Below, piece after piece: positions 43,831 through 60,233 of a stretch of 64,000 nucleotides of DNA (its first letter is position 1; each line of letters opens with the position of its first letter). The notes under the pieces are model-generated. The model saw only the letters and a list, made by a program, of their open reading frames with translations, did no database searches and was not told where the DNA came from. This DNA is from an uncultured Planctomycetia bacterium (GTDB taxonomy: Bacteria > Omnitrophota > Gorgyraeia > B26-G9): positions 3,964 to 67,963 of the forward strand of contig CAYTGV010000011.1 in assembly GCA_964437495.1 (NCBI GenBank), written 5' to 3'. The translations under genes and the position numbers were made by a program.

Positions 43831-43956
43831 ATTTGAAAAACCGAAAAAAGTCACCAAGTCACAAGGTCACATGTCACAACTTAAAAATAGAACCATCCCT
43901 TTTTTTTCTTTTTTTAAAAATAAAAAATAATAAAGAAGCTCATTGATATAATATTA

Positions 43957-44052
43957 ACTAAAAACTAGTCGCTGTCCCTAGTTTCAAGTTCGAGATCACC
44001 TACTGGGGTGAACTTCTTCGCGCGCTCCCACCAGTTAGGTGGAATGAGTTGT
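43957..44052 (-). repeat. attC-like site (distal-most; R' end degenerate)
   Basis: acctactggggtgaacttcttcgcgcgctcccaccagttaggt is an imperfect palindrome homologous to the site at 48644..48718. It has ...gagttGTTATAAg at the ORF-proximal end. Confidence 0.55.
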
Positions 44053-44990
44053 TATAAGTTTAAATTTTCTATTTGCTCAATAGGCACGCCGTTTATTTTC
44101 CAAACAGGCTCTAATGCGTCAATTAAACCACAGTTAAAGTTTATAGAGCCGTTTTTTTCAAAATGCAAATTTATGCAGTCAGTTCCTTTATCCGTTCTTG
44201 AATAGGTTGCTTTTGAACCGTTTGAAAAATGAACACTGAAACCGTATAATCCTTTTTCCTCATTATTTAATAATTCTAGTATCTCATATTGAGGCCATTT
44301 ATGAAATTTTTTAGCTTTGCCACAAAAATTAAGGTATTCTTTATGCCACGATATTAATGCTCCATAAAAATTAAAGCAATTAGATATTAGTACGCTTATT
44401 TCTTCAAGTGGTATTTGTTGTGCAGGGCCTCCTTCAGTCCATCTATAATACTCAGAGGAAAATATATAATCTGAATGGAAAAAAGAATTTCTGACCTTGT
44501 TATTAAAAAAAGAATCAAAATATTCTATCAACAAAGTTTCTTTTGTTTTTGTTGCAAGTTCTTTTATATAATCTATTTTTCGCTTAGCACTTGGAGGAAT
44601 ATAGCCAAGTATTTGTTTTTTATTAGATCGTGATAAATGACCAAAGGGTCTAATATGATAATGTTCGCCAGCAATAATTCTTAATATATTAGTGAGTAAT
44701 TCGTGAGGAGCTGTCATTTCAATTGCTTGACAATATATTAATAAACCGATCCTCCAATGACCGTTTTTCGAAGGAGCATCTTTCGCTTTTTTCAAAAGCC
44801 AATTGTAATCTTCAAATGATTTTTGCGATTCTTCGAAAGAATCCCAGTCAGCGTCTTGGCACCCACCAACTCTCAAAAGAGAACATATTGTGTCAAAAGC
44901 ATTTTTTTCAAAAGCTTTGCGTGCTAACGAACAAAAATATTCGAAAAATTTTTCTTTTTCTATGAATTTCAATTCTTTTAAATCATTCAT
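44052..44990 (-). CDS. Cassette ORF, hypothetical protein (312 aa)
   Basis: Long ORF with attC-like sites on both sides. No recognisable motif. Confidence 0.6.
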   Translation of the reverse strand: MNDLKELKFIEKEKFFEYFCSLARKAFEKNAFDTICSLLRVGGCQDADWDSFEESQKSFEDYNWLLKKAKDAPSKNGHWRIGLLIYCQAIEMTAPHELLTNILRIIAGEHYHIRPFGHLSRSNKKQILGYIPPSAKRKIDYIKELATKTKETLLIEYFDSFFNNKVRNSFFHSDYIFSSEYYRWTEGGPAQQIPLEEISVLISNCFNFYGALISWHKEYLNFCGKAKKFHKWPQYEILELLNNEEKGLYGFSVHFSNGSKATYSRTDKGTDCINLHFEKNGSINFNCGLIDALEPVWKINGVPIEQIENLNL

Positions 44991-44998
44991 TTTTTTAC

Positions 44999-45124
44999 TT
45001 ATAACGTTTGAGCTCAGGCAACTTAGCTAATAGCCAATAGTCGATGGCTAATAGTTATCTTGCTTCATGTTTTTTACTATTGACCATCAGCTATGAGCCA
45101 TAGGCCATTCTGTTTGCTTGAAGC
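44999..45124 (-). repeat. attC-like site, family 1 (...GTTTGAGCTCAGGCAACTTAGCTRATAGCCAATAGTCGATGGCTAATAG...GACCATYAGCTAT...)
   Basis: TTATAAC at one end and GTTATAC at the other. The internal inverted repeat is ctaatagccaatagt / actattgaccatcag. Further copies lie at 51892..52003, 52290..52390, 53085..53265, 54868..55002, 55705..55870 and 56440..56590, with a partial copy at 50085..50250. Confidence 0.6.
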
Positions 45125-45130
45125 GAATTG

Positions 45131-45586
45131 TTATACTTTCTTATTATAATATAATCTAAATTTCTCAATAACTAAAATATATATTTGAGAGGGTTTCATC
45201 CCCTTGGTAATTGCAGAATCATAATCTTTGGGTGTTTTTATGTCCATAATTTTACCATCATTAAATTTTTCATGCCATTTTGATTTTTCACTTACTATTA
45301 TAGATTTATTTGAGTCTTCATACTGATCTGATGTGATATCAATAATAACACTATCCAGAACAATCCATTCATGCGAAGAACCATTATACATAGCGCCACA
45401 AAATCTTTTTGGCTTTAATCCGAACTCATTTTTTAGGCAATTTCCTAAAAATAATGTAGCCCAGCTACAACAACCACTAGGAAAATGCGGAAGAAAGCCA
45501 GGAGCATTATCTAGATTTATATTTTCAATAGACTTTCTGAATAATTGTGCTATTTTTAATAATTCTTTTTTATTAATTTTTTTCAT
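45131..45586 (-). CDS. Cassette ORF, hypothetical protein (151 aa)
   Basis: ORF with GTTATAC, then ctgaataa, then ATG upstream. Confidence 0.55.
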   Translation of the reverse strand: MKKINKKELLKIAQLFRKSIENINLDNAPGFLPHFPSGCCSWATLFLGNCLKNEFGLKPKRFCGAMYNGSSHEWIVLDSVIIDITSDQYEDSNKSIIVSEKSKWHEKFNDGKIMDIKTPKDYDSAITKGMKPSQIYILVIEKFRLYYNKKV

Positions 45587-45589
45587 TTA

Positions 45590-45678
45590 TTCAGAGTATA
45601 ACATCGACATCACCCGCCGGTAGACGCGACGCAAAGCGGCACGGGTAACGGTCCGGGGAATGAAGTCATTATATGTTT
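45590..45678 (-). repeat. attC-like site, short GC-rich family
   Basis: gtataacatcgacatcacccgccggtagacgcgacgcaaagcggcacgggtaacggtccgggg is an imperfect palindrome with a TATAAC end. Confidence 0.45.
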
Positions 45679-46689
45679 TTATCCCAACTTTAGTATTTTT
45701 ATATTTGAAAGTTTAGCTGGTCCACATTCATTAAAAAATCCAAATCTTAAATCTCTTTCAAATTCTGCAAAAAGATCTTTTCCATTACCACTATCATCTT
45801 GAATTATTAACTTTGCACCATCAACATAAAAATCAAATATTTTACTTGCAACATCAATCTTAACTTCAATAGCAAAAGAGTTTTTAACTTTTACTAATTT
45901 TTCGGGGACACAATTCAAAATTTTTGGCCAATAAAATTTTTGAGTGCAATGCAAAACACTATTTGGGGTTCCCGGAGCACCACGATTATCAAGTCGTAAC
46001 ATTTTAAAGTTGCCATCATCGACATAGTTAAAAACAAAATTAACTAAAGAATCTTTAGGTAACGATAAATCAAAAGCTAAATGCAAAAAAGTGCTAATCT
46101 TGTTTTTGAATATTAAAAAAGAATGAACTCTCGTTCTATCAATATTAAGATTCAGAACAAGATTAGAATCATAGTCTGGATTTCCAGCTAATTTATTTAA
46201 TATAAATTTCTCAATAATTATATTCTTCGATAGTGCGCTAAGTGTAGCATTAAGCAATCCCAGAGCCATCTGAGCATGCCCAAGATCAATGGGCCACCCC
46301 TTTTTTGCCTGTTTTTGAGGATGAATAAAATTTCTATAATCTTTAAATAGATTATAAATCAGCTTAAATTCATCTATTTCGGGAAGCAAGTCAACATCCT
46401 TTAAAAGAATATATAATTCGCTAATTGTAAGACTGTTAAATTTCTTTAATTTTTGATTAACTCCTTCTTTTGGGTATTTAGGAGAATTTTTTAATTCAGT
46501 TTTATAAATATCAGCTAAATATATAAAAATCCCTTCAATTGTGCTAATTGATAAAAAAATAGTACTATAATTAGCATTAACTATAAAAACTCTTTCTAAT
46601 TCTTGAAGTCTTCCACGCAATACAGCTCTTAACTCAACATCATTTATAAAATTAAGTTCTTGCTTTGTGATTTCAGTTTTGTATTCCAT
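45679..46689 (-). CDS. Cassette ORF, hypothetical protein (336 aa) with a DYRNFIHPQK motif (possible HEPN-like Rx4-6H)
   Basis: It shares the motif DYRNF[IV]HP.K with the unrelated cassette protein 46860..47684. Confidence 0.55.
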   Translation of the reverse strand: MEYKTEITKQELNFINDVELRAVLRGRLQELERVFIVNANYSTIFLSISTIEGIFIYLADIYKTELKNSPKYPKEGVNQKLKKFNSLTISELYILLKDVDLLPEIDEFKLIYNLFKDYRNFIHPQKQAKKGWPIDLGHAQMALGLLNATLSALSKNIIIEKFILNKLAGNPDYDSNLVLNLNIDRTRVHSFLIFKNKISTFLHLAFDLSLPKDSLVNFVFNYVDDGNFKMLRLDNRGAPGTPNSVLHCTQKFYWPKILNCVPEKLVKVKNSFAIEVKIDVASKIFDFYVDGAKLIIQDDSGNGKDLFAEFERDLRFGFFNECGPAKLSNIKILKLG

Positions 46690-46705
46690 TTAATTCCTTG
46701 TTTTC

Positions 46706-46882
46706 ATATAACGTTTGAACTCAGCTACTAAGTTGAGCTCCACCTGTCCCGCCGTTTTGTGGCGAGATTTGCGCTTGCCTCGCCAGGCTTTTTGGCGGGC
46801 GCACCCTCCAGCCTGAGAGATTTTTTAAATTCCTCAGGTTCTCGCACTCTTTAAGAGGGTTACCTGTAGTGATTTGTTAGTC
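46706..46882 (-). repeat. attC-like site, family 2 (GC-rich palindromic core ...cccgccgttttgtggcgag...ctcgccaggctttttggcgggcg...)
   Basis: CATATAAC-GTTTGAACTCAGC at one end and gatttGTTAGtc at the other. A related site lies at 48079..48191. Confidence 0.55.
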
Positions 46883-47684
46883 TACTTTTTTTTGTTAAAT
46901 TTTTTTCAAAATAATTACAAATACTATCCAGAGCCCCTTTAGCCATGAATGCTTCTGGTTCATCACATGAATGTTCTTCCTTTATTTCTTTTTTGGGATG
47001 AACGAAATTGCGATAGTCACGAAGAACCTGATCAATTGTATTCGCTTTTTTATCTGGCAGGATTGAAATATCAGTTGCAACTTCAATCAAATCTTTTAAC
47101 ACCCATTCATCTTTCAAAATATCTTTTACTTTTTTATGCTTATCTCTAGGTGCTTTTAAGCTAGCCATAGCTTTTTTTCTAATTTTACTTTTTGAACACA
47201 ATAAATCATATAATATTGCTTCTAAAATACTTCCTGCAATAATAACACAGCTTTTCCATGCTCTGCTAGGCAGTAAAATCACAGATAATTCCTTATAGTC
47301 TCTTTCAACTATATTGCGCAATTTTTTGTCCGAAATATAAGGAAAACAACGCTGTTCAGCAAAACTACCTTCACCCCCATAATTTTCAAGGATGTCGATT
47401 AATTTCTGTATTGTTGAATAAAGGTCTAAGCCAGGGTAAAGGAGAGGAAGAGTAAGAATAGAGTCTGATGTTTTTTTAGTATATCTTCTTATAACCACTC
47501 TTATACTTACAAACTCATATTGCCATTTGGGAAGAAAATCTCTAGGATCAAGGCGATTGATTTCTTCAGTAAGAGCTGTAAGTAATTCATGTACGTTTGC
47601 AGTTGTTTCATCATTCCTTTTTTTTTGCAAAGTTAAAGATTTCCTCTGTATCTCTGTACATAGTTTTTTTAAATAGCCAACCAT
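46860..47684 (-). CDS. Cassette ORF, hypothetical protein (274 aa) with a RDYRNFVHPKK motif (possible HEPN-like)
   Basis: The motif is shared with 45679..46689. The start is preceded by GTTAGAC. Confidence 0.55.
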   Translation of the reverse strand: MVGYLKKLCTEIQRKSLTLQKKRNDETTANVHELLTALTEEINRLDPRDFLPKWQYEFVSIRVVIRRYTKKTSDSILTLPLLYPGLDLYSTIQKLIDILENYGGEGSFAEQRCFPYISDKKLRNIVERDYKELSVILLPSRAWKSCVIIAGSILEAILYDLLCSKSKIRKKAMASLKAPRDKHKKVKDILKDEWVLKDLIEVATDISILPDKKANTIDQVLRDYRNFVHPKKEIKEEHSCDEPEAFMAKGALDSICNYFEKNLTKKSRLTNHYR

Positions 47685-47701
47685 ATTAATATTATTCCTT
47701 T

Positions 47702-47893
47702 GTCTAACAGGTTAATATACGAACTTCGCATTTTAAATACAGCGTAGAGCGTCTAATTTATCCCGCCGTTCTTTAGCGGGAGCGCTTAGCGAATTCAAAC
47801 TACCCCCTCATCCCTAAACCCTATTCCCTGCGTTTCTATCCCCTTTTCGCGCACATGCACCTACCGCGCACGCACCTACGAGGTGAATTTTAA
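47702..47893 (-). repeat. attC-like site, family X (long; contains atacagcgtatagcgtctaatttatcccgccgttctttggcgggagcgcttagcgaat)
   Basis: Three copies (47702..47893, 49374..49560, 58740..58985) share more than 85% identity over about 120 nt, including the hairpin cccgcc-gttcttt-ggcggg. The R'-like ends GTTAGAC/GTTAGAT abut the downstream ORF starts. Confidence 0.55.
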
Positions 47894-48058
47894 TTATTTA
47901 TCTTTATCTACTGTATTTATATCGCAAGGAACTACAGCTCCACATTTAGGACATTTAGTAGGGATGCCCTTAATCTGAATATGCAAACCTTCTTCATGTT
48001 GAATAGGGGATTCAAATCTATTATTGCATTCGGGACAAGACAAGTATCTCTTAGACAT
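47894..48058 (-). CDS. Cassette ORF, 54-aa zinc-ribbon protein (absent from the ORF track; below the length cutoff)
   Basis: The minus strand reads ggaggaacta ATG and encodes MSKRYLSCPECNNRFESPIQHEEGLHIQIKGIPTKCPKCGAVVPCDINTVDKDK*. It has two CPxC pairs and a strong RBS, and sits exactly between two attC-like sites. Confidence 0.6.
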   Translation of the reverse strand: MSKRYLSCPECNNRFESPIQHEEGLHIQIKGIPTKCPKCGAVVPCDINTVDKDK

Positions 48059-48195
48059 TAGTTCCTCCTTTATTGCTGTATAACATTTGAGCTCAGCTAC
48101 TGGCTTGAACTACTTTTGCGCACACCCTCCAGCCTAAGAAATCTCAGGTTCTCGCCCTCTTTCGAGGGTTAGCTGAAGTAATTTGTTATCTGTTT

Positions 48196-48630
48196 TTATT
48201 CTTTTTCTTCTAGAACTTTTTGCACAACACCTTCAGATATTACTATTTCTTCTCCTGTAACACTGATAAATTGAAAGGTTTTAGTATTAATCAATATAGT
48301 TTCTATTGCCAATGGGAGTGTCCTGGTAAGACATATAACCTTATCTTTTGTCCCAGTTGGAAGGCCAGAGTAAATATATGAGATTGTATATTTATCATTA
48401 ATTTTGTCTAATTTGGTTTGGTCGGAAGGATTTGTTTGTTCGATTATGCGTGCTAGTTGAAATGTTTCATTTATTTTTATTCTATGCACGAATAAGTTTG
48501 GATTTTTCTCTGGAATTATTTCCCCATTTTTATATATACCAACATTTTGCTCAGTTAAAACTAATGTTTCTGTAGCTAAGGCGTTAGAGCATATAAAAAG
48601 AAAACCAAGTAATAAAATTAGTTTTTTCAT
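48196..48630 (-). CDS. Cassette ORF, secreted or lipoprotein (144 aa)
   Basis: The signal peptide is MKKLILLLGFLFICSNALA. GTTATATG, then aaaggaaa, then ATG lie upstream. Confidence 0.6.
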   Translation of the reverse strand: MKKLILLLGFLFICSNALATETLVLTEQNVGIYKNGEIIPEKNPNLFVHRIKINETFQLARIIEQTNPSDQTKLDKINDKYTISYIYSGLPTGTKDKVICLTRTLPLAIETILINTKTFQFISVTGEEIVISEGVVQKVLEEKE

Positions 48631-48643
48631 TTATTTTCCTTTC

Positions 48644-48718
48644 ATATAACATTCAAACTCACCTACTGGGGTGAACTTCTTTGCACGCTCCCACCAGTTA
48701 GGTGAAAGAGTTGTTAGA
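48644..48718 (-). repeat. attC-like site (short palindrome acctactggggtgaac...cccaccagttaggt)
   Basis: CATATAAC and GTTAGAG ends. It is homologous to the site at 43957..44052. Confidence 0.55.
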
Positions 48719-48720
48719 GA

Positions 48721-49374
48721 TTATTTGTCGAAATTTATTTTAATATTTTTATAACCCAGCTTTTCGAATATATTACACAAACTTGAAAATGCTTGTCTAT
48801 CATTATGTATTAAATGAGGTCCTACATCAAGAAAAGCTCTACTAATCATATAATAAAAATCGCTGCCAAACAATAAGAGCTCTTTCATAACTGCATGACT
48901 AGGCAAGGAATTTCGTTTAGCTTGGTATTCTGCATGAGCAATTACTTTGTTTCGGACATAATCGTATTGTGAAAAACAAATCTTATGTTTTGAATAAAAG
49001 TTTTTGCAGATAACTTCTAGTGTTTCAATGTAATTATCTTTCTCACTATTGTTCTCATATTTTTCTATAAATTCATTAACGTATTCATAATATTTTGGTT
49101 GAACATCATTGCTTTTTATAAAGTTTAAAATTGCGGGAATGGAGTTCAGTTGATAATCTTTTTCTGGTTCAAAAATTTTACAAATATTAATTACGCAAGA
49201 CTCTAAAAGAACCATCTGAATGTGAACAAAAAATCTTTTTCCTATTCCAATAGTGTTTATATTGTCTGCGTTTAAGCCGAGTAGCTTTTCTGAATCAATG
49301 CTTTGCTTAAGTGAAAAAAGTATTTTTGCTAATTCTTTATTTCTCTCATCTAATTTTTTCATCATTTTTTTCAT
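48721..49374 (-). CDS. Cassette ORF, hypothetical protein (217 aa) with a possible HEPN-type Rx4-6H motif (RNKVIAH)
   Basis: ORF with GTTAGATGaaaaaa then ATG upstream. The motif assignment is tentative. Confidence 0.5.
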   Translation of the reverse strand: MKKMMKKLDERNKELAKILFSLKQSIDSEKLLGLNADNINTIGIGKRFFVHIQMVLLESCVINICKIFEPEKDYQLNSIPAILNFIKSNDVQPKYYEYVNEFIEKYENNSEKDNYIETLEVICKNFYSKHKICFSQYDYVRNKVIAHAEYQAKRNSLPSHAVMKELLLFGSDFYYMISRAFLDVGPHLIHNDRQAFSSLCNIFEKLGYKNIKINFDK

Positions 49375-49582
49375 CTAACATTTAATATACGCAATTCGCA
49401 TTTTAAATACAGCGTATAGCGTTTAATTTATCCCGCCGTTCTTTGGCGGGAGCGTTTAGCGAATAACAAATCCAAAACTACCCCCTCATCCCTAACCGCT
49501 GCTTTTAACTAGTAATTCATAATTCACGTGTGCCCTTTAGGGTTTAACTCATAACTATGTTTCCCTATTCTCTGCTTTTCTG

Positions 49583-49814
49583 TCTCCCCTTTGAAACCAA
49601 GCATTATGTTTTTCTTTAAGTTAGGCGTTTGGGCGAAGACAGGATGTCGAAGCGCCGTAAGGCAGGATTGCCTTTTCGGCGGTTTACCCATGAGACTAAC
49701 TTATTAGAAAAACAATGCTGTTTCTCAGGGGCGGTTTTCCTTTGCTTCGTTTCCTTTAGACGCCAAAAGGAAATGAAGGCTGGGGGACGCTTTATCTGGG
49801 GCAGGCATCGCCCC
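49583..49814 (+). ncRNA. Copy B of the repeated structured-RNA-like element, embedded inside a composite attC region
   Basis: It aligns with copy C. The helix gcgccg...cggcg (B) versus gugccg...cggca (C) shows a compensatory change. The hairpin cuucguuucc/ggaaaugaag (with a G.U pair on this strand) versus cauacuuucu/agaaaguaug in C also shows compensatory changes. The conserved 3' end is gcugggggacgc..aucgggggcaggcaucgcccc. The overlapping 72-aa ORF 49629..49847 is judged spurious. Confidence 0.5.
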
Positions 49815-50256
49815 TTAATCCCACATAAATCCCCTGCCGCTTTCTAAAAATAAAAAAAGACAATCCCCTCAATCTCTTGAGAAAATCGCCTTAAAATTAA
49901 ACTTTTTGTATGCACTCATTAATTCTACTCCTTTGTAGCCTTATGAGTTTGTCAAAACCATATTAATTTAGGTTACATCTTTCTCTTACACAAGTCAATG
50001 AAAAATCAAACAGGGAAAACTGCCCCATTTTAATGAACTTTTATGTTTTTTCTCTCCACTTTTAATATATTCTATATAGTCGATAACCAATAGTCTATGG
50101 CTAATAGTTATTTTATCTTTAATCTGCTTCTTCACTCATCACTAATAATTCATAATTTGTAACTATTTGGACCATTAGCTATGAGCTATAAGCCATTTCA
50201 TTTGCCTGCCTGTCCCGCCGCTTTTTGGCGGGGAAGCGATTTGTTAGGGGTTTTAT

Positions 50257-50622
50257 CTATAGATCATTACGTAAATTTGTTAGTTTTCTTTCTAAAACTG
50301 CAAGTTCTCGTAATGTATTCTCTTTAAGTTCAGTGTTTTTATTATCAACCTCACTAAAATCTATGTTTTTATAAGTATTTCTCAGGAAAATGAATTTTTC
50401 CAGCCAAACATTTAAATCCTGCCGTTCGGTTTCTTCACCCTCATTTATAAATATTTCCATACCATCAGTCAATTCTTTCCAGTAAACCTTTACTATTGAA
50501 AACACAGCATCTGGACTTTCGTCTTCATTAATATCAAGGCGAGTTGTCCATAACATAACTTCATTTAATTCAATTATGTCTAACAAAGAATCAACTACTT
50601 CCTTAATAATATCTCTACTCAT
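50257..50622 (-). CDS. Cassette ORF, hypothetical protein (121 aa)
   Basis: RBS AAGGAG. A TTGACA-N16-TAAAAT promoter-like sequence lies about 60 nt upstream on the minus strand. Confidence 0.55.
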   Translation of the reverse strand: MSRDIIKEVVDSLLDIIELNEVMLWTTRLDINEDESPDAVFSIVKVYWKELTDGMEIFINEGEETERQDLNVWLEKFIFLRNTYKNIDFSEVDNKNTELKENTLRELAVLERKLTNLRNDL

Positions 50623-50944
50623 AATTACTCCTTACCAATTTTATTCACACCTGATTTACTGTAATAAATTGTGCACCTTTAGGTAGACTAGGCATTCAAA
50701 TTTCACAACCTGAATGTCAGACCTTGATTTTAGACATTTTTTGTCAATTGTCAAGGTTTGCCCCCAGGTAATTTAGCCGATGGCTAATAGTTATTTTATT
50801 TTTAATCTGCTTGTTCACTTATAACTAATAATTCACTTGTGCCCTTTAGGGTCTTTGGGCTATTAGCTATGCCTGTCCGCTGTGCTTTGTAGCGAAAGCC
50901 ATTAGCCATTCTGATTGCCTGAAGCGATTTGTTATAATCTTAAT

Positions 50945-51310
50945 TTATTCAATAGTTTTTTTAAGTTTTTTATCTAATTCTTCTATTTTTTTGTTCATTT
51001 TAATAAGCAAAAAGAACACTGCAGCCATGATGCCAAAGAAAAGCCCCATCAAAAACCAAAGAGCACTTCGCTTGCGCAATCCTTCCTTTTTAGCTAATGA
51101 TGACAACCAAATTCCTATTGCAAGATGGGCTAATATTGAGGATACAAAAAGAATAATCGAAAGGCTTTGAGTTTGCATGGTTATTGTTTGTACAATTTGT
51201 GGCCCATATAATATTTTAACAATAAGATTTCCTCCAGCAGAAGCTAATCCAAGAACAAAGCTCAAAACCAAGATTATAAATAAAGATTTTTCTAATTTTA
51301 TTTCATTCAT
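50945..51310 (-). CDS. Cassette ORF, small 3-TM membrane protein (121 aa)
   Basis: Hydrophobic segments are present, with an attC-like palindrome immediately downstream of the start side. Confidence 0.5.
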   Translation of the reverse strand: MNEIKLEKSLFIILVLSFVLGLASAGGNLIVKILYGPQIVQTITMQTQSLSIILFVSSILAHLAIGIWLSSLAKKEGLRKRSALWFLMGLFFGIMAAVFFLLIKMNKKIEELDKKLKKTIE

Positions 51311-51328
51311 TTTATTCTCCTTTTTTAG

Positions 51329-51397
51329 TTATAACTTTCAAGCTCACCTGCCGAAAACGCGCAACGTTTTTCGGTCAGGTGGAGCGTTTTGTTAGAT
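51329..51397 (-). repeat. attC-like site (near-perfect palindrome cacctgccgaaaacg-cgcaa-cgtttttcggtcaggtg)
   Basis: GTTATAAC and GTTAGAT ends flank a 15-bp stem. Confidence 0.6.
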
Positions 51398-51410
51398 GTT
51401 TTTATTTTAA

Positions 51411-51869: not shown

Positions 51870-52006
51870 ATTAGTTCTTTCTTATTTTATCATCTAACGT
51901 TTGAGCTCAGGCAACTTAGCTGATAGCCAATAGTATATGGCTAATAGTATTTTGCTCTATGTTTTTTACTAATGACCATTAGCTATAAGCTATAAGCCAT
52001 AAGCCA

Positions 52007-52285: not shown

Positions 52286-52392
52286 CTTTCCTTATAACGT
52301 TGTTTAGCTAATAGCCAACAGTCGATGGCTAATAGTATTTTGCTCTATGTTTTTTTACTATTGACCATTTTAAAATGTCACCGTCCCCTTTT

Positions 52393-52869
52393 TTATATCT
52401 CTCCTTTAAGCTGTTTTTGTTCTACCAAAAATCGATTTAACAGATTAGCAAATCCATGCGCATCTTTTTGACTAAAAGGAGATGGGCCTTTAGTCGGCAT
52501 ACCGTTATCGCGCATCTCTTGCATTAGATTGCGCATTGATAAATAAGATTTAATATTATCCTCGCTGAATAAATTTCCCCGATGATCCATAGCATAAGCT
52601 TTTTTAGTAATAACACTATCCGCCAAAGGAATATCTGCAGTTATAACCACATCACCTTCTTTGACCATTTCCACAATTCGCTCATCAGCCTCATCAGGTC
52701 CTGCCTCAACTATAAGATAAGTTATAAACTCTGATTTACCAATATTGATCCGTTTGTTTGATACAACAACACTCGGGAGAGAAAATCGTTTAATCGCTCT
52801 AAATAAAATTTCCTTTATCCGATTAGGAAAAGCATCGCCATCAAGGTATAGAGTCATCTTCATTAACAT
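52393..52869 (-). CDS. Cassette ORF, YaiI/UPF0178 (DUF188) family protein
   Basis: LYLDGDAFPNRIKEIL...GDVVITADIPLA...MRNLMQEMRDNG parallels E. coli YaiI (IWVDADACPNVIKEIL...GDLVITADIPLA). Confidence 0.7.
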   Translation of the reverse strand: MLMKMTLYLDGDAFPNRIKEILFRAIKRFSLPSVVVSNKRINIGKSEFITYLIVEAGPDEADERIVEMVKEGDVVITADIPLADSVITKKAYAMDHRGNLFSEDNIKSYLSMRNLMQEMRDNGMPTKGPSPFSQKDAHGFANLLNRFLVEQKQLKGEI

Positions 52870-53054
52870 ATCTGTTTAACCCTTCCGACAGCGCCGTCAA
52901 TCAATCTAACTTTTATCCCATGCGAATGCACAGAAGAATTTGTCAATATATCCTGAACAATCCCCTCGGTTAACTTACCGCTTTTTTGATCTTGTTTTAA
53001 TACTATTTTAACCTTCAAGCCTTGCTTTATATTTACTCTTTCATTTCCACTCAA
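52863..53054 (-). CDS. Cassette ORF, YwbE (DUF2196) family small protein
   Basis: A 63-aa protein with VKIVLKQDQKSGKLTEGIVQDILTNS...HGIKVRL, matching the YwbE signature. It shares a cassette with the YaiI gene and overlaps it by 7 nt. Confidence 0.6.
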   Translation of the reverse strand: MSGNERVNIKQGLKVKIVLKQDQKSGKLTEGIVQDILTNSSVHSHGIKVRLIDGAVGRVKQIC

Positions 53055-53270
53055 AATAATAATAGTTTCCTTTCTAAAACATTAAAATAAACCATGACAT
53101 CTCAGGCAATTTAGCTGATGGCTAATGGTCGATAGTCAATTGCTAACAGATATTGCAATTTTGTTTTTTGTTTATTGTTTTTCACTATTAGCCATTAGCT
53201 ATGCCTGTCCGCTGTGCTTTGTGGCGGAAGCTATTGACCATTGTAAAATGTCACTCTCCCCTTTTATCTC

Positions 53271-54749
53271 TTAGAATTTTCTGTAGAAAAATATGCATAT
53301 CTTCTTTAGCAGGGCATTATTCATCTTATTCATTATCCAAGTTTCCGCGATACGCTTAGATAAAAACCCCATAGTCGGAAATGAATGTGCCAGAAAAAGA
53401 ATATTAAGCAAGTTGATCTTTTTTTGAATTATAAGTGCCCATTCATTTATCATTTCACCTGAGCCCTCACCGATAATACTCACCCCATATACTTTTCCCA
53501 AAGGGCTGGCAAAAACCTTTATAAAACCAACCGCGATATTCTCCGCGATCGCAGCACCGTAATCCTCGTATTTAACAATAAGCGTTTCATACTTTATTCC
53601 TTTAGCTTTAAGTTCTTTTTCCATCATACCCACATAAGAAACCTGCGGTTCAGTAAAAGCTGTCCAGGGTATCACATAATTTCTGTATTGAAACAGCGAA
53701 AAAGGGCTAACAGCATTCATTATCGAAAACATTCCCTGATGCATTGCCACATGTGAAAGCATTATACCGCCATTACAATCTCCCACTGCATAAATATTCT
53801 TATTGCTTGTCCTGTATTTTGCATCAACCTTGATACCGTTCTTATCATATCCAACCCCGGCATTTTCAAGTTTTAAAGCATGAAGATCAATATTTCTCCC
53901 CGAACAGAGCAATAATTTTTCAGATTTTATACAAAGCCCGTCATCAGTGCGCAAAACAATCTGCCCCTCCTGATTGTTTACGCTGATAATCTTTTTTAAG
54001 TTGTAAACATCAATTCCTTCCTTTTTAAAGACTTCTTCAAGTACATTCCCAGCTTGTTTATCGCCAAAAGGTATAAGATGTTCATCCATTTGCACAATAC
54101 TACACTTAGTCCCAAGCCGAGTAAACGCCTGAGCCATCTCACAGCCCATAACACTGCCGCCGATTATAGTCATACTTTTAGGAGCTTCCTTTAAATCAAA
54201 AATATTTAGATTGGTTAGAAAATCTATATCAGAAATACCTTTTATTGGCGGAATTTGAGGCTCTGTGCCAACAGCAATAAAGATTCTCTGAGCAGTTAAA
54301 GTATCATCTCCCACTTTAACAGTATGCGCGTCTATAAAACTGGCATCTCCTTTTTCTAATATAAGCTTAACCTTATCAAACATTTTTATTGTCTTTTTAT
54401 TACATATGAAATCAAGATATTCAGCTATTTCTTTAGAAGGAAATTTTACTCGCAAATCCGGCTCTTTAATCACTCCTATTTGGCTGAGTTTTGAAAGCGA
54501 ATGCCTTAGCTTAGCGATTCTGAGCAGTGCTTTGCTAGGTATGCATCCTACATTCATACACTCTCCGCCAATTTTATTTTTTTCAATAGCGCATACTTTT
54601 AATCCCATTTCCGCGCCCATAATAGAAACAGCCATCCCGGCAGGTCCTAACCCAATACAGATTAGATCAAAATCATATTTCATGTATTCTCCTTGATCTT
54701 CCTTTTTCCAAACAACACTCTTGCATTCATTAAACCCGCAATTACTCAA
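53271..54749 (-). CDS. Cassette ORF, pyridine nucleotide-disulfide oxidoreductase (dihydrolipoamide dehydrogenase/mercuric reductase family)
   Basis: A redox-active disulfide GGECMNVGCIPSK, FAD- and NAD-binding GxGxxG motifs, and an extended hydrophobic C-terminal tail. Confidence 0.75.
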   Translation of the reverse strand: MSNCGFNECKSVVWKKEDQGEYMKYDFDLICIGLGPAGMAVSIMGAEMGLKVCAIEKNKIGGECMNVGCIPSKALLRIAKLRHSLSKLSQIGVIKEPDLRVKFPSKEIAEYLDFICNKKTIKMFDKVKLILEKGDASFIDAHTVKVGDDTLTAQRIFIAVGTEPQIPPIKGISDIDFLTNLNIFDLKEAPKSMTIIGGSVMGCEMAQAFTRLGTKCSIVQMDEHLIPFGDKQAGNVLEEVFKKEGIDVYNLKKIISVNNQEGQIVLRTDDGLCIKSEKLLLCSGRNIDLHALKLENAGVGYDKNGIKVDAKYRTSNKNIYAVGDCNGGIMLSHVAMHQGMFSIMNAVSPFSLFQYRNYVIPWTAFTEPQVSYVGMMEKELKAKGIKYETLIVKYEDYGAAIAENIAVGFIKVFASPLGKVYGVSIIGEGSGEMINEWALIIQKKINLLNILFLAHSFPTMGFLSKRIAETWIMNKMNNALLKKICIFFYRKF

Positions 54750-55019
54750 ACCAATATATACATGTCTCTTGCAGATCTTTTGTCAATGCAATACTATTTT
54801 TGTCTCAGTCAGGTGTAAATTCTGCTTTTTCAGTAATGTTTGACTTTTTTTATCCCCTTTTTCACTATATGACGTTTGAGCTGCCAGTTTAGCTAACTGC
54901 CAATAGTCGATGGCTAATAGTGGTTTGCTCTATATTTTTTTACTATTTACCATTAGCTATAAACCATGAGCCATTATATTTACCTAAAGTAATTTGTTAG
55001 ATGTTTATATATTTTAAAA

Positions 55020-55364
55020 TTAATCTTCTACAAAAATTGTTTTCTTTATCGGATTAGGTGCTTTTACTACCAAAAACTTCAATGGATTTTGACTTTCATT
55101 GTACCAACAATGCACAATATCTTTCGGACTATCTATTAAAGTATTTTTTGAAACTTTTTGTTTTTCTTCTCCGATCTCAACAATTCCTTCTCCTTCCAGT
55201 ACATAAAAGACAACATCAACAGGTGTTATGTGACGCTTTAATGATTGACCTGGAATTAGCGTGATTACTGTAATCATGACTGCTTCTTTATTGTATAGAT
55301 TTCTAACGTCCACGTTGTGCGCATTATTCATTATTTGAGTTTCATCTAATTTTTTTATTATCAT
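55020..55364 (-). CDS. Cassette ORF, cupin-domain protein
   Basis: A 114-aa protein with a cupin-like G(x)5HxH-type segment (LIPGQSLKRHITPVDV...). Confidence 0.45.
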   Translation of the reverse strand: MIIKKLDETQIMNNAHNVDVRNLYNKEAVMITVITLIPGQSLKRHITPVDVVFYVLEGEGIVEIGEEKQKVSKNTLIDSPKDIVHCWYNESQNPLKFLVVKAPNPIKKTIFVED

Positions 55365-55422
55365 TTTATCTCCATTGTTATTATTAATAATTTTAATTCT
55401 TTTATTACCGATTAAAAAGCAC

Positions 55423-55680
55423 TCAACCCACCATCTTCATAATCCCCACATAAGCACCAAAACCAATACCCCAGGAAATTGCTACCCAAAAGATTAGTTT
55501 TGTTTCGGCTAGAATATCTTTCCAATATTCCCCTCTACACATTGAAAAAATATTTGGGATGAGCCAAAATTTTATACAACGCAAAAATTCTTCTTTGTCT
55601 CCGAAAAAGGGTTTCCATAGAAGATAGGCTAGGCCGACTCCTACTATAGTTCCCACACTCTTACTAATAATAGCTATCAT
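55423..55680 (-). CDS. Cassette ORF, small membrane protein (85 aa)
   Basis: Two hydrophobic helices, in the same cassette as the cupin gene. Confidence 0.4.
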   Translation of the reverse strand: MIAIISKSVGTIVGVGLAYLLWKPFFGDKEEFLRCIKFWLIPNIFSMCRGEYWKDILAETKLIFWVAISWGIGFGAYVGIMKMVG

Positions 55681-56000
55681 ATACTCTCCGTTTCATGGAT
55701 TCCTATAACATTTGAGCTCAGGCAACTTAGCTGATAGCCAATAGTCGATGGCTGATAGTTATGTTGCTCTATGTTTTTTACTATTCACCATTAGCTATGC
55801 CTATCCGCTGTGATTTGTAGCGGAAGCCATTAGCTATACGCTATTGACCATTTTAAAATGTCGCTGTCCCCTTTAATACACGTTTGATTTTATATATAAC
55901 GTTTAAGCTCAGGCAAAAATCAGCGCATAGAAAATTCAGACATAGTAATCGCTGTCTCTTTTCCCCTCACTAAATCAAGAACAGTTCAGTCTAATCTCTT

Positions 56001-56414
56001 TTATTGTTTTTTCTCTCTTAAATATAAAACTAACACACAAACTCCATGGATTACAAAAGCCGGTGCAAATAAAAGGCCTATAAAGTATCCATTAGTGCTT
56101 ATTCCGGAAGCAAATGCCCAGATGTATATTGCTGATACACCTAAACTAGCAATCGCATCTACCAATTTATAATTATCTTTCTTATAGTATAAAGGCAAAG
56201 CGCCTAATGCTGCATAAATAGCTCCGTTAAAAATCAGAGTTATCGTTTCCTTCTGGGATATGCCAAGTTTAAAAATATTTTGTATCCCAAATAATAAGCC
56301 CAAAAAACCTAAAAGAAGTAAAGGAAAATGGTAGTACATAGCAATATTGGGATTGAATTTCTCAAGAACATGTCCGAGAGTTCTATTTTCATTTGTAGTT
56401 TTGTTTTCTTCCAT
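56001..56414 (-). CDS. Cassette ORF, 4-TM membrane protein (137 aa)
   Basis: Hydrophobic profile only. Confidence 0.5.
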   Translation of the reverse strand: MEENKTTNENRTLGHVLEKFNPNIAMYYHFPLLLLGFLGLLFGIQNIFKLGISQKETITLIFNGAIYAALGALPLYYKKDNYKLVDAIASLGVSAIYIWAFASGISTNGYFIGLLFAPAFVIHGVCVLVLYLREKKQ

Positions 56415-56607
56415 GTCTTACTCTCCATTTTCTTTATATAACGTTTGAGCTCAGGCAAATTAGCTGATAGCCAATAGTCGATGGCTAATAGTTATTTTAT
56501 TTTTAAACTGCTTCTTCACTCATAACTAATAATTCATGTGTGCCCTTTAGGGTATAACTCATAACTATGTTTACCTATCCCCTGCTTTTCTCTCACCCTT
56601 TTAAAAC

Positions 56608-56637
56608 ATAATATGCCATTTCCATGAATTTTGTCAA
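56608..56637 (-). promoter_or_regulatory. Near-consensus sigma-70 promoter (TTGACA-N18-TATTAT) reading into the downstream cassettes
   Basis: The minus strand reads TTGACAaaattcatggaaatggcaTATTAT. An almost identical copy lies at 60182..60211. Confidence 0.55.
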
Positions 56638-56728
56638 TTTTATATTATTTTTGTCTTTTTATCCCCTTTTGGAATTTTTAGCTATATTTCATTGTTTTAG
56701 GGGAATGGATGGAGTAGAGGCGAAGGAA

Positions 56729-58561
56729 TTAAATGCTTTGGTCAATTTTTGTTTTGTTTTGAACCTGAAAAATTTTTATCCCAGCGGCAAGAAATGAAAT
56801 TGAGGCGAGATTTGCTAGGTTTTTGCTGTTTAGCTCTTCTTGCACCCATTCTGTTTGATTAACAGAGGATCCTAAAAAAGTATGTAAAAGTCTAGCGGAA
56901 ATAGAACGTTCTTTGGCTTGGGTTGTAAAATTAGGAGATTTAGCAAGAGAAATGACTTTTATTTTTTCTTGGATAGATAAGTCATTATAGAAATTATTTA
57001 TAACCTGTAGTAATTGTTCAAATCTCTGATTGCTGGTTGTGTATGCAGGCAATTCGGCTTTTCTTGATAGAAACGGCTCTTTAGTTCCTAAGAAATCTTG
57101 ATCTACATCTAAAATTATATCTTGATCTTCATCTGCAAGTTTTTTAAGTTTTATTGCATCCTTGGGAGATACTAAATGAACCTCTACTTTTCTTACATTA
57201 GTGAATTTTGCATTTTCGCCTTCCCATTCTTCTTTGATATACCCTTTTTCATAACTTCCAAAAACGTTGTTTCCATCTAAAGATACAGAAACAAAAGTAT
57301 CTTTGCCTCTAAACATTGCTTTTCCAATAAGAATTTCATATTTTTTGTTATATTCTGGAACGTAGTCTACGTTGCTGGATTCATTTGCTTCTTCAGGGAC
57401 AACCCAAATTATTTTATCGATTATCCCAGCATAAACAGCTGGAATAATGAAACCATCGATGTCAGATTTTTGGGTAATGCGTCCTAACATTTCATTATTA
57501 AAATTTCCGTTCAAAAAAGCATCTAAAAAATCATTATTTAATCTGTAAGAAGCTAAATCTCGATGGGCATCAAAGTGAAATAAGGTTCTTTTTTTTGTTT
57601 TAGGACCTAACTCCTTCATCCAAGCATATAATGCCCAATAATGAGCATAGCCTATATAAACCGGAATATCGGTAGAAGTAATTGCTCTGGGTTTAGAGAT
57701 ATTGTTAAAAAGATCTAGCTCATAAAAAAAATCAGCATTCTCAAACTGATCTTGGATTACTGAATATGTGTTTTGATCAAAAATCAATGGGTATGTGCCT
57801 GCATCAAACCAAGTTACATATTTTTCTTTATTATCTTTATTGGCATATAATTCAAAAATTTTGTTTGCACGGCTTAATCTAGAAAACATGATGTCTAAAT
57901 ATGATATTAAATCTGTTTCACCTTTAATTGTTAAAGATTCTTTTAATTTCATAAAATGCATTTGCTGTTCATTATAAATTTTTGATGCCATTAACCAATC
58001 ACTACTATTCAAAGAATTGAGGAATAATTTCCAAATGGGATCATTTGTATCAAGGGTGATATCCGCATTTTTTAATAAAGAGTTTAAATGATTACCTACT
58101 GTCATTTTAGAATATCGAAGCTTATCTATAAATTTTTTTTCTTCTTGTTTTTTGAGAATTAATTCAGGATTAGCTTTTTTTACATATAATCCTGCATTGG
58201 CAATGCCTGGAGGAACTAAGGCATAAGTTATGGCGGCTCCAGTTAATATTCCCAAACCTTTGATAAATTTTCTTCTTCCAATAGAGATGTCTGAGTTTGC
58301 ATTTTTTGAATCATCAGAAATAATAAATCTTTTGATAAATGATTTTATATATTCAGCAAATTTTTTATTTTGGGGAGTTTTAGCTATCTCTATTGTATCT
58401 TTAAAGTATTCTTTTAAGTTTATATTGTTTAATTGTAAATGCGGGGCAAGGTGATTATTAAGTTCTATACAATAAGCCAAATCACCCAGAAGAAACATAT
58501 TAATTAAGAATAAAATGCAAAGTTGTTTCATTAGTTTATTTATTCTAATCTTAAGTTTCAT
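56729..58561 (-). CDS. Cassette ORF, large hypothetical protein (610 aa) with an internal twin-arginine-like segment (RRKFIKGLGILTGAA)
   Basis: Long ORF. The true start may be internal. No catalytic motif recognised. Confidence 0.55.
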   Translation of the reverse strand: MKLKIRINKLMKQLCILFLINMFLLGDLAYCIELNNHLAPHLQLNNINLKEYFKDTIEIAKTPQNKKFAEYIKSFIKRFIISDDSKNANSDISIGRRKFIKGLGILTGAAITYALVPPGIANAGLYVKKANPELILKKQEEKKFIDKLRYSKMTVGNHLNSLLKNADITLDTNDPIWKLFLNSLNSSDWLMASKIYNEQQMHFMKLKESLTIKGETDLISYLDIMFSRLSRANKIFELYANKDNKEKYVTWFDAGTYPLIFDQNTYSVIQDQFENADFFYELDLFNNISKPRAITSTDIPVYIGYAHYWALYAWMKELGPKTKKRTLFHFDAHRDLASYRLNNDFLDAFLNGNFNNEMLGRITQKSDIDGFIIPAVYAGIIDKIIWVVPEEANESSNVDYVPEYNKKYEILIGKAMFRGKDTFVSVSLDGNNVFGSYEKGYIKEEWEGENAKFTNVRKVEVHLVSPKDAIKLKKLADEDQDIILDVDQDFLGTKEPFLSRKAELPAYTTSNQRFEQLLQVINNFYNDLSIQEKIKVISLAKSPNFTTQAKERSISARLLHTFLGSSVNQTEWVQEELNSKNLANLASISFLAAGIKIFQVQNKTKIDQSI

Positions 58562-58992
58562 AAGTAATCAGTTTTCCTATTAACTAAATTATAAGTATCA
58601 ATTAAATTATACCTTATAACGTAGATATTATACAAATTAGTTAGCGTAATTTATTGATTTAATTGTTAGCTAAAACTATAGCTGGAAAGGCAATAAAAAT
58701 TAAGATTAGTAAATATTTATTTATGATTTATTTTCTTAAAATAACAATTAATATACATAGTATGTGTTAAATACAGCGTATAGCGTCTAATTTATCCCGC
58801 CGTTCTTTGGCGGGAGCGCTTAGCAAATCCAAAACTATCCCCTCATCCCTAACCGCTGCTTTTAACTCGTAATTCATAATTCACGTGTGCCCTTTAGGGT
58901 ATTTGGGCCATTAGCTATGCCTGTCCGCTGTGCTTTGTAGCGAAAGCCATTATGTTTGCCTGTAGCGAATTGTTAAAAATGTTTTAAAATAG

Positions 58993-60039
58993 TTAATTTT
59001 TATTTTCTATCAAATTTTTTAATTCTTTAGCAAGTAAAGACTGTCCCAATTTATTTAAATGACAATAATCAAGAAAAAATTTCTGTGTGTTCGCAGGGTT
59101 GTTATTAACTTGTTTTAGGAAATAATCATCCAGATTTAAAATATTTAAGTTATCTAACCCTATTAAGTTTTGTTTAATCATCGATTGAAGTTGCGGAGTA
59201 ATGAGAAATCTTCTTTTTATCCAATTTTTTTCGATTATATCTCTAGTGATATTAATATCTTTCGGCATTTCTATATTCAATTGGTCGTATTTTTTCATAT
59301 GGTTCCAATTGTGTGTATAGTTTATTGGGGGAATAACATAAATAAAATTTGTTTGAGGGTTATCATTTATTATACTTCTTAGTTCTCTTAGTCTCATTTT
59401 ATAAAATGAATTTTGCAATGAAATATAGAATTTGTTTAAATAAGGCCAAGAATCTTTCCCTCCACCTTTTATTATCGCAAAGGGAAATCGATGAGGATGC
59501 TTTGATTGGCATATTTTGTCGTATAAAGTATTTATTGTATTATGAGTTGTGTGTGAAAAAAAACTGATTTGAGAAAAGATTTTGGGTAAAAAGTATCGAA
59601 TGAGAAAAACTGCACAATTAGAATGTTCACTACGGTTTAGTAGTTCTAAATATTCATTATTACCAGAAAAAATAACGCAATTTTCAATATCATTTGTTCT
59701 TAAGGAGTTATATAAATAGTAATTTATTTCTGAGAGAGGAATCCCAATGTTTGAATCATTAATGATGGTACTTTTGGGGAAATAACTTGCTAGCAATTCA
59801 GAATATCTATCGTTAATATTTTCTAACCCCGCTCCTTTTGAAGCTGAGCCTCCAAGACAAAGAATATCAATCTTCTTACCAAAATCATGCACCTCAGGCA
59901 ATTTAAAAGATACTTCTCTTAGTACATAAAATCTTTTCCCCCGCCCTATAGTAATCCGAGTTATTAACTCAACAGCGCTTAGAATAATAATGAGGGTAAA
60001 AAATACAACATATAGTTTGTGGAGAATATTTTTTTTCAA
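58993..60039 (-). CDS. Cassette ORF, membrane-anchored hypothetical protein (348 aa), possibly SGNH/GDSL-like
   Basis: An N-terminal TM helix. ILCLGGSASKG weakly resembles GDS(L) block I. Confidence 0.45.
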   Translation of the reverse strand: MKKNILHKLYVVFFTLIIILSAVELITRITIGRGKRFYVLREVSFKLPEVHDFGKKIDILCLGGSASKGAGLENINDRYSELLASYFPKSTIINDSNIGIPLSEINYYLYNSLRTNDIENCVIFSGNNEYLELLNRSEHSNCAVFLIRYFLPKIFSQISFFSHTTHNTINTLYDKICQSKHPHRFPFAIIKGGGKDSWPYLNKFYISLQNSFYKMRLRELRSIINDNPQTNFIYVIPPINYTHNWNHMKKYDQLNIEMPKDINITRDIIEKNWIKRRFLITPQLQSMIKQNLIGLDNLNILNLDDYFLKQVNNNPANTQKFFLDYCHLNKLGQSLLAKELKNLIENKN

Positions 60040-60181
60040 GATTTTAATTTCTTATTTTTAACAATTAATATACATAGTATGTGTTTGCTTGAAGGTATTC
60101 TTAATCTTGCCCTGAATATGGTTAAAATTGCCTACTTTAACTTTAATATTTATCTATTTTATCAATAATATCATATTATCC

Positions 60182-60211: not shown

Positions 60212-60233
60212 TTTTATATTATTTTTGTCTTTT

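Follow-up and report, generated by a model that had tools for sequence, protein, structure and literature searches.

An integron-type gene-cassette array without a local integrase in an Omnitrophota genome

Is a 16-kb block of one-directional genes in an uncultured Omnitrophota bacterium an integron cassette array, and if so, what has become of its integrase? The block lies on contig CAYTGV010000011.1, within a window of 64,000 nt (the whole stretch of DNA analysed here), in which a previous sequence-only reading had proposed an integrase-less, integron-like cassette array with heterogeneous attC-like sites. Every test that was run supported this central proposal, and we place at about 85% the probability that the block, in an Omnitrophota genome, is the cassette array of a chromosomal integron and has no local integrase, the arrangement termed CALIN (cluster of attC sites lacking a nearby integron integrase). 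A CALIN is defined by at least two clustered attC sites, with gaps of at most 4 kb, and by the lack of intI within the cluster distance (PMC4889954). Covariance models recognised six to nine sites in the array, separated by gaps below 4 kb except between 51397 and 55703, where manually identified sites bridge the interval; as such a cluster has no local integrase, the array belongs with the CALINs.

The whole array, including sites and promoter, covers positions 43,982-60,211 of the window (Table 1). A non-overlapping gene model yields 19 open reading frames (ORFs) of at least 54 aa between 44,052 and 60,039, all of them on the minus strand, close to the 17 or so first proposed. The composition of the array is foreign, with a GC content of 0.29-0.355 as compared to 0.38-0.41 in the flanks, and comparison of the repeats of the window revealed several repeat families in the spacers between the cassette ORFs. 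When read on the minus strand, most ORFs carry a ...YTAACAA... box near their end, and GTTRRRY-type ends (GTTATAA, GTTATAT, GTTAGAT, GTTATAC and GTTAGAC) are found about 10-25 nt 5' of the ribosome-binding site and ATG, as had been noticed before. This is the organisation of gene cassettes, in which an ORF is followed by attC in a single orientation and R' lies close to the next start codon. Not all cassettes have a single ORF and no promoter: two contain two genes each, one unit of the array is ORF-less, and at least three promoters are predicted in association with cassettes. The two-gene cassettes are recognised as such because no site occurs in two of the spacers (55365-55422 and the overlap at 52863-52869), and the ORF-less unit (55702-55919), which is of cassette size, displays two attC 3' halves about 190 nt apart.

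In order to identify the sites, two attC covariance models were built from non-Omnitrophota sequences, R1 from a seed of 22 attC sites and R2 from 119 sites of 28 loci, and both were scanned over the full 64 kb on both strands with filters off. The nine best R1 matches score 38.7-11.2 bits; without exception they fall at ORF ends of the minus strand, between 43,982 and 56,497, and noise elsewhere in the window starts from 9.7 bits down. R2 recovers the same six complete sites at 18-37 bits, its best match off the cassette strand reaching 14.9 bits. Beyond the window, R1 detected seven sites beside the intI gene of the Omnitrophota locus L053 and a total of 218 sites in 100 comparison loci, including unrelated 58-60-nt sites of Xanthomonas. 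Besides, the bottom-strand R'-L' motif TAACRTTYRARCTCA occurs in nine copies with at most one mismatch, all on the plus strand between 45,002 and 56,453, for 0.15 expected. Mutually complementary ends, R'' (RYYYAAC) and R' (GTTRRRY), are present, about half of the spacers having a single end or a mutated one. About eight sites are complete (44999-45136, 45596-45675, 46706-46882, 48078-48191, 48644-48719, 51329-51397, 54865-55002 with an R' of GTC, and 43982-44057 with a decayed R'). The statement that each ORF is followed by an attC-like element holds for these sites only, the other spacers being empty or containing 5' halves, 3' halves or degenerate and mutated boxes (about nine partial sites).

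When the bottom (plus) strands of the short sites are folded with DNA parameters, each yields a single hairpin with a TAACA/TGTTA closure, in which the spacer is unpaired and bases of the L'' arm bulge out, so that the extrahelical bases to be looked for in attC sites were found. At 51329-51397 a T and a G are bulged on the L'' (3') arm, and the sites at 48644-48719 and 48078-48191 form single hairpins with the same closure and one bulge. The sites of the array fall into at least three sequence families, and such a mixture of attC types within one CALIN is expected. Family 1, of about 130 bp, had been counted at least eight times; we find six copies of its 3' 96 nt, of which only one or two are full-length.

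The same type of site is found far beyond this genome. An 18-nt motif, TAACRTTTGAGCTCAGGC, taken from the L'-R' part of the commonest site in the window, was scanned against one genome per GTDB species and was found in more than 117 genome stretches from many phyla. The hosts include Stutzerimonas stutzeri, Xanthomonas, Nitrosomonas and Acinetobacter, which are classic integron hosts, and a Bathyarchaeia metagenome-assembled genome (MAG); Omnitrophota account for about 20 stretches in seven MAGs. Among the motif loci that were fetched (up to 8 kb each), nine contain a full-length IntI homologue (43-59% identical to IntI1), and a partial match is seen in six others. In these genomes the motif is part of sites of 61-105 nt, and the 5' half, which lay outside the search pattern, agrees as well (TAACAAWTCGCTTCARGCAA in the window and TAACMATTCGCTNCAGGC elsewhere). 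Altogether, the repeats of the array are real attC sites, about eight of which carry the defining features. The comparison loci also revealed a 64-nt attC, GCMTAACMATTCGCTGCAGGCGCGACGGCCCTGACGGGCCGCGGCCTGAGCTCAAACGTTAGRY, that is nearly identical across many phyla (L005, L013, L015, L035, L071, for instance L071:778-841, and about 60 other loci), with hosts among Pseudomonadota, Nitrospirota, Acidobacteriota, Gemmatimonadota, Verrucomicrobiota, Phycisphaerae, BRC1 and a Bathyarchaeia MAG; this suggests that the cassette type or the site has travelled very widely. Rfam at the gathering threshold matched no attC site in the whole window, and home-made attC finders combining an R''/R' regular expression with arm duplex energy were dropped, being either too strict or no better in number of sites than on shuffled sequence. 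The only Rfam and ARAGORN matches in the window are tRNA-Leu(TAA) and tRNA-Cys(GCA), at 611-823 on the minus strand and unrelated to the array.

We then considered the integrase. A tblastn search of the 64-kb window with IntI1, XerC and two Omnitrophota IntI proteins returned nothing better than E = 0.33, and the same queries found nothing in sister loci or in L001, an independent contig of ENA that agrees with the window in every position and continues for 7.9 kb beyond its end at 64,000. IntI1 and XerC proved usable as queries, IntI1 matching TIGR02249-type proteins of the comparison loci at 43-59% identity. Pfam did not detect a tyrosine recombinase among the flanking ORFs either, so that neither such an enzyme nor a remnant of one is found in the 64 kb or the 7.9 kb beyond, in agreement with the earlier remark that no intI is visible on either side. 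Hence the adjacent TIGR02249 intI of a complete integron is lacking; an attI core (60059-60085) and a Pc-like promoter (60211-60182) upstream of the first cassette are, by sequence, both in place.

Indeed, the claim that no attI is visible did not hold. The pattern TATATTAW-N2-3-GTTA occurs four times in the window (starts 60059, 58742, 49376 and 47705), always on the minus strand and right before a cassette start, for 0.15 expected, and among all comparison loci it is found in Omnitrophota-type loci only. In L025 and L053 it lies between intI and the first cassette, as ...ACTACGTATATTAATTGTTATAGG or ...CGAATTCGTATATTATATGTTATAAC. In L129-L133, which were picked by IntI protein homology alone, a TTGACA-type promoter, the core and the ATG of the first cassette follow one another in this order when reading away from the intI start codon, from which the core is about 170 nt distant, and the promoter of the window has the same layout as that between intI and attI in L129, L131 and L132. 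Two core subtypes can be distinguished: subtype i, ATGCGnAyTrCGTATATTAAwTGTTA, is common to L025, L129 and the window sites X2 (core 49373-49401) and X3 (47702-47731), and subtype ii, CACATAsTATGTATATTAATTGTTr, to L131, L132, L126 and the window sites S0 (60059-60085) and X1 (58742-58768). The long repeats at 47712, 49382 and 58746, previously listed as an attC family (family X), have cores matching the attI of integrase-linked Omnitrophota loci; judged by sequence, they are, together with S0, attI-type sites and not attC. A precedent for attI-derived sites inside an array is given by mobile integrons with their delta-attI-type cassettes (PMC12901181). The Pc-like promoter has a predicted internal duplicate at 56637-56608, and transcription would probably start from both and from cassette-borne promoters such as that at 50754-50727.

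An Omnitrophota/PVC-type host had been put forward as a condition, and the pyruvate kinase encoded beside the array supports Omnitrophota: its 32 closest homologues are 48-78% identical, and those with names come from Omnitrophota/Omnitrophica and one 'PVC group bacterium'. An array of this kind had been considered unusual in such a host. The same attC type is present in at least seven Omnitrophota MAGs among GTDB species representatives, two of which carry a TIGR02249 integron integrase beside the array; the L025 and L053 proteins score 408 and 388 bits for a cutoff of 265. With the L025 IntI as query, 7,969 proteins were retrieved at E <= 1e-60, and NCBI names many of them 'integron integrase [Candidatus Omnitrophota bacterium]'. 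Omnitrophota are thus no unusual host for integrons, which are present and already annotated in public MAGs of the phylum, and the argument from an unusual host fails, although our literature search found no paper that discusses them. The integrases of this clade measure 424-448 aa (L025:1085-2351, L053:~3250-4529; P0002-P0011), with an N terminus about 100 aa longer than that of IntI1 (337 aa).

Table 1. Features of the cassette array and its surroundings, in order of reading on the minus strand, followed by the RE-X repeats (R1 and R2, covariance models).
Feature	Position	Strand	Remark
Pc-like promoter TTGACA-N18-TATTAT into the array	60182-60211	-	11/12 consensus match; predicted
attI-type core S0 CACATACTATGTATATTAATTGTTA, subtype ii, right before first cassette	60059-60085	-	near-identical to attI of L131/L132/L126
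Cassette ORF, 348 aa, no family match	58993-60039	-	
attC 5' half R''-L'' TTTAACAATTCGCTACAGGCAAAC, no matching 3' half	58954-58977	-	
attI-type site X1 ('family X'), core subtype ii	58742-58830	-	
Cassette ORF, 610 aa, UPF0489 domain	56729-58561	-	
RE-X 3' module and second TTGACA-N18-TATTAT promoter copy (predicted)	56608-56715	-	
attC 3' half L'-R' GCCTGAGCTCAAACGTTATA	56436-56497	-	R1 18.2 bits; R2 11.4 bits
Cassette ORF, 137 aa, membrane-like, no family	56001-56414	-	
Two attC 3' halves (55893-55919, 55702-55750) around ORF-less segment	55702-55919	-	
Two-gene cassette, 85-aa membrane ORF and Cupin_2, no site between	55020-55680	-	
Long family-1 attC, complete, R' mutated to GTCATAT	54865-55002	-	
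Cassette ORF, pyridine nucleotide-disulphide oxidoreductase	53271-54749	-	
Degenerate attC remnant, L' truncated after GCCTGAG	53092-53270	-	
Two-gene cassette, DUF2196 (YwbE) and DUF188 (YaiI), ORFs overlap	52393-53054	-	
Degenerate attC, L' deleted, R' GTTATAA kept	52290-52392	-	
Cassette ORF, half-size GDT1/UPF0016	52007-52285	-	
Family-1 attC without recognisable R''-L''	51891-51988	-	R1 17.1 bits
Cassette ORF, 152 aa, signal-peptide-like, no family	51411-51869	-	
Complete short attC, 69 nt, ATCTAAC...GTTATAA	51329-51397	-	R2 37.3 bits; R1 23.3 bits
Cassette ORF, 121 aa, membrane, no family above cutoff	50945-51310	-	
attC, R''-L'' intact, R' decayed, overlaps internal promoter 50754-50727 (predicted)	50727-50936	-	
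Cassette ORF, 121 aa, no family	50257-50622	-	
attC truncated in 3' half	50065-50248	-	
attI-type site X2, core subtype i ATGCGAATTGCGTATATTAAATGTTAGAT	49373-49465	-	
Cassette ORF, HEPN_AbiU2	48721-49374	-	
Complete attC, 76 nt, GC-rich family, CTCTAAC...GTTATAT	48644-48719	-	R2 19.9 bits; R1 11.2 bits
Cassette ORF, 144 aa, secreted-like	48196-48630	-	
Complete attC, 114 nt	48078-48191	-	R1 18.6 bits; R2 18.2 bits
Cassette ORF, 54 aa, zinc-ribbon-like	47894-48058	-	
attI-type site X3, core subtype i	47702-47795	-	
Cassette ORF, 274 aa, R-N-F-V-H motif, no family; stop within next attC	46860-47684	-	
Complete long attC, 177 nt	46706-46882	-	R1 and R2 both 22.0 bits
Cassette ORF, 336 aa, no family	45679-46689	-	
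attC seen by eye (R'' TATAAT, R' GTTATAC)	45596-45675	-	missed by R1 and R2
Cassette ORF, 151 aa, no family	45131-45586	-	
Complete family-1 attC, 138 nt, TATAAC...GTTATAA	44999-45136	-	top covariance-model match: R1 38.7 bits, E 1e-8; R2 32.0 bits
Last cassette ORF, 312 aa, R-N-S-F-F-H motif	44052-44990	-	
Terminal attC (array end), R' decayed	43982-44057	-	R2 18.5 bits; R1 15.5 bits
RE-X copy A, upstream of array promoter, in the usual place of intI	60226-60500	-	
RE-X copy B, within array	49573-49829	-	
RE-X copy C, inverted relative to A and B, just past last attC	43485-43840	+	arrangement as in L067

The array could have arisen as follows, in line with established integron biology. The cassettes would have been inserted singly by an integron integrase belonging to the clade that other Omnitrophota MAGs encode, through recombination of the folded bottom strand of attC with attI and crossover at G|TT. 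The platform promoter and the attI core remain at the upstream end, and intI would have been lost or displaced later, leaving RE-X, a repeat described below, and a truncated TPR gene at the junction. Three internal attI-type sites of two subtypes, the RE-X copies and shared spacer modules suggest a composite origin, in which at least two platforms may have been pieced together via repeat recombination or events involving attI. About half of the attC sites are halved or mutated, a decay that would be expected once no integrase is active any more. If an integrase were made elsewhere in the genome, excision of the cassettes with intact sites could still take place. The orientation of the array would be stable. 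A negative GC skew of the plus strand across 1-64000, together with a minus-strand location of about 60 of 70 genes, would place the attC bottom strands on the leading-strand template, a position shared by 25 of 30 sedentary chromosomal integrons (PMC5371416).

In the downstream flank, PilZ, pyruvate kinase and sigma-54 genes belong to 43 kb of housekeeping genes. In the upstream flank, a TPR fragment, two uncharacterised ORFs, a C-terminal ABC_tran_2 fragment and PilZ precede housekeeping genes. The gene remnants at this border lie within 60665-61066 and 62351-62788; the TPR remnant has a stop near 60,725 and the ABC_tran_2 fragment matches only profile positions 405-542 of 542, and both point to a past rearrangement or deletion at the upstream boundary.

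As regards cargo, the families first proposed were correctly called: DUF188/YaiI with DUF2196/YwbE, a half-size GDT1/UPF0016 protein, a cupin, a pyridine-nucleotide-disulphide oxidoreductase and HEPN_AbiU2. PADLOC gave no defence-system match for ten cargo proteins. An R-N-x3-5-H motif is common to four of the cargo proteins, in the forms RNSFFH, RNFIHP, RNFVHP and RNKVIAH (44052-44990, 45679-46689, 46860-47684 and 48721-49374). Only the last ORF matches a Pfam HEPN family (AbiU2), and PADLOC recognised none of the four; by their motif, these proteins may be HEPN-type nucleases or abortive-infection cassettes.

Several points weigh against the interpretation as a CALIN. Both covariance models are surrogates for the attC model of IntegronFinder, and the R1 seeds were located via a motif taken from the window, though R1 also recovers the unrelated Xanthomonas-type sites. 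Only six to nine of about 18 spacers are recognised by the models, and the long sites (138-177 nt) do not form one hairpin at minimum free energy, showing attC geometry only with their arms folded alone. We infer the loss of intI, with neither a pseudogene nor a deletion scar found. The promoters are consensus matches only, and their overall number is not enriched (84, for 76.5 expected). The cassette content is invariant across assemblies, so that variation lends no support to mobility of these cassettes: the overlapping parts of a JGI assembly (Ga0307992_1000065) and of two ENA assemblies are identical to the window, neither strain variation nor an empty site was seen, as all contigs with the flanking genes are 100% identical to it, and a look-up of two window proteins for strain variants returned no database record. 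Finally, RE-X may have a role that the CALIN account misses.

RE-X is a GC-rich non-coding repeat of 260-345 nt, present in three copies (A, B and C) and as isolated 3' modules at 56652-56715 (minus strand) and 43440-43484. It displays no conserved ORF, and comparison of 43300-44000 and 60100-60700 with Rfam 15 gave no match at E <= 1. Homologues were found only in sister contigs of the same metagenomes (L122-L126) and in the Omnitrophota MAGs JAZDHG01 and JAHITE01; these relatives (L067:4000-4347, L095:3-177 and L122-L126) adjoin integrase-less arrays in unrelated chromosomal contexts, and RE-X was found neither in the integrase-linked loci of the comparison set nor in viral contigs. The order RE-X, promoter, attI core and cassette is the same at copy A, in L126/L123 and in L095, which indicates that RE-X stands where intI stands in complete integrons. 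Alignment of eight sequences supports a six-helix structure, with 92.2% of positions paired as compared to 84.4% in shuffles, and with 18 compensatory pairs as compared to 8.7 +/- 1.9 in shuffled alignments (0 of 500) and at most five in slid controls. A conserved G.U pair is a weak hint that, in copies A and B, the strand that folds lies antisense to the cassettes. Inverted terminal modules occur only at copy C, and there is no consistent target-site duplication among the copies. Copy C is flanked by short GTCACAAG-like tandem repeats (43380-43420 and 43845-43885), which may reflect either a microsatellite that served as insertion site or a long duplication. Five identities considered for RE-X found no support and were rejected, namely a fragment of a group II intron, an IS110/IS1111 bridge RNA, an end of IS200/IS605, a c-di-GMP riboswitch and an intI relic: there was no Rfam match, no associated ORF and no tblastn similarity to IntI.

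These data bear on the strongest competing explanation, namely that the array is an active satellite platform, one of several dispersed intI-less RE-X/promoter/attI units loaded and unloaded in trans by a single integrase encoded elsewhere in the genome. The promoter and attI core are intact (60211-60059), the cores hardly differ from those next to real intI genes, six to eight attC sites are still canonical, and the order of RE-X, promoter and attI core also heads the integrase-less arrays of L126/L123 and of the MAG JAZDHG01 (L095); moreover, half of published CALINs sit in replicons that also encode IntI (PMC4889954). However, no intI was found from the samples of the window, the three close IntI homologues that were traced coming from other samples, about half of the sites have decayed, the array content is identical in all assemblies, and the presence of two attI subtypes would call for two cognate integrases or a single tolerant enzyme. 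We regard a platform of this kind as possible but distinctly the less probable account. A more far-reaching version, in which RE-X would be a structured RNA or single-stranded DNA element of a new type, confined to the integrase-less arrays of an Omnitrophota lineage, and the RE-X/promoter/attI units would be dispersed acquisition platforms without integrase, served in trans, appears improbable. If it were true, RE-X might have a part in regulation or in the splitting and joining of arrays by recombination, and it is the only element here that could change thinking about integrons.

That the array belongs to a complete integron, with an intI just beyond the sequence that was examined, is very improbable. 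Contig ends often yield spurious CALINs in draft genomes (PMC9024848), but here the upstream end of the array, with its promoter and attI, is within the window, and intI starts only about 170 nt from the attI core in Omnitrophota. The next 11.8 kb contain RE-X, gene remnants and housekeeping genes (PilZ, an epimerase, a tRNA-binding protein, SurE and Ogg) and no integrase, and 43 kb of housekeeping genes follow downstream.

The notion of miniature inverted-repeat transposable elements or repetitive extragenic palindromes with coincidental attC-like ends could draw on spacer modules D2, D4 and D10-D14 and on RE-X, which have no clear attC role, and on the GTCACAAG repeats around copy C, but it retains next to no likelihood, since the model matches and motif copies lie at ORF ends on one strand of one 16-kb block, the remaining 48 kb of the window contain no copy, and homologues of the sites are found next to TIGR02249 integrases; miniature elements would combine terminal inverted repeats and target-site duplication with copies scattered over the genome, whereas the attC sites are confined to the array. 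Just as little speaks for an assembly chimera of repeat-rich metagenomic reads: other assemblies do break at RE-X or in the array (L002 at 60,461, L128 at 44,387), but a 100% identical array is present in the JGI (65.5-kb contig) and independent ENA (62-kb contig) assemblies, and an identical pyruvate kinase, P0121, is also found in an NCBI source.

The interpretation as a CALIN can finally be set against known systems. The array resembles the Vibrio cholerae superintegron (Vibrio cholerae repeats of about 120-130 nt) in its chromosomal location, its long attC sites and its small uncharacterised, toxin-like or HEPN cargo, and sedentary integrons in the probable position of the attC bottom strand on the leading-strand template (PMC5371416). 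It differs from the superintegron in having no intI, far fewer cassettes, several attC families and many degraded sites; with about eight complete and nine partial sites, it falls short of the more than about 19 highly similar attC sites and resident intI of sedentary chromosomal integrons. Delta-attI-type cassettes (Gonzales Machuca et al. 2026, PMC12901181) are likewise bounded by internal attI-derived sites instead of attC. These belong to class 1 and 2 clinical integrons that have an integrase, and their recombination by IntI1 was shown experimentally, whereas the sites of the window are those of an environmental IntI clade without a local integrase and are known here from sequence.

The complete integrons of Omnitrophota (L053 = JBAZJG010000006, L025 = JAHITY010000128, L129, L131 and L132) share with the array the attC type ATCTAACRATTCGCTNCAGGCAATC...CTCTGCCTGAGCTCAAAYGTTA, the attI cores and the order of promoter, attI and first cassette. 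They carry a divergent TIGR02249 intI about 170 nt from attI, where the window has RE-X, and their sites measure 68-105 nt, in contrast to the longer sites of the window (up to 177 nt), many of which have decayed. Omnitrophota MAGs thus widely share one attC type and one IntI clade, so that the cassette pool of the phylum could be mined with existing tools.

The closest match is with CALINs (Cury et al. 2016, PMC4889954; Neron et al. 2022, PMC9024848), which likewise have at least two attC sites in the same orientation and no intI nearby, no recognisable intI pseudogene, mostly uncharacterised non-resistance cargo and intermediate attC similarity. Among CALINs, 95% have no intI pseudogene nearby and only 6.6% exceed ten attC sites (PMC4889954; PMC9024848). 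Integrase-less arrays are already well known, so that the array is a good example of its kind and not a surprise. It is larger than most, and it offers a well-bounded case of integron decay in a poorly known phylum, with promoter and attI kept, intI gone and half of the attC sites eroding. Unlike other CALINs, it retains a promoter and an attI-type site at its head and three more attI-type sites within, in two subtypes that suggest the joining of pieces from different platforms, and it is bracketed by RE-X, a structured repeat undescribed for CALINs.

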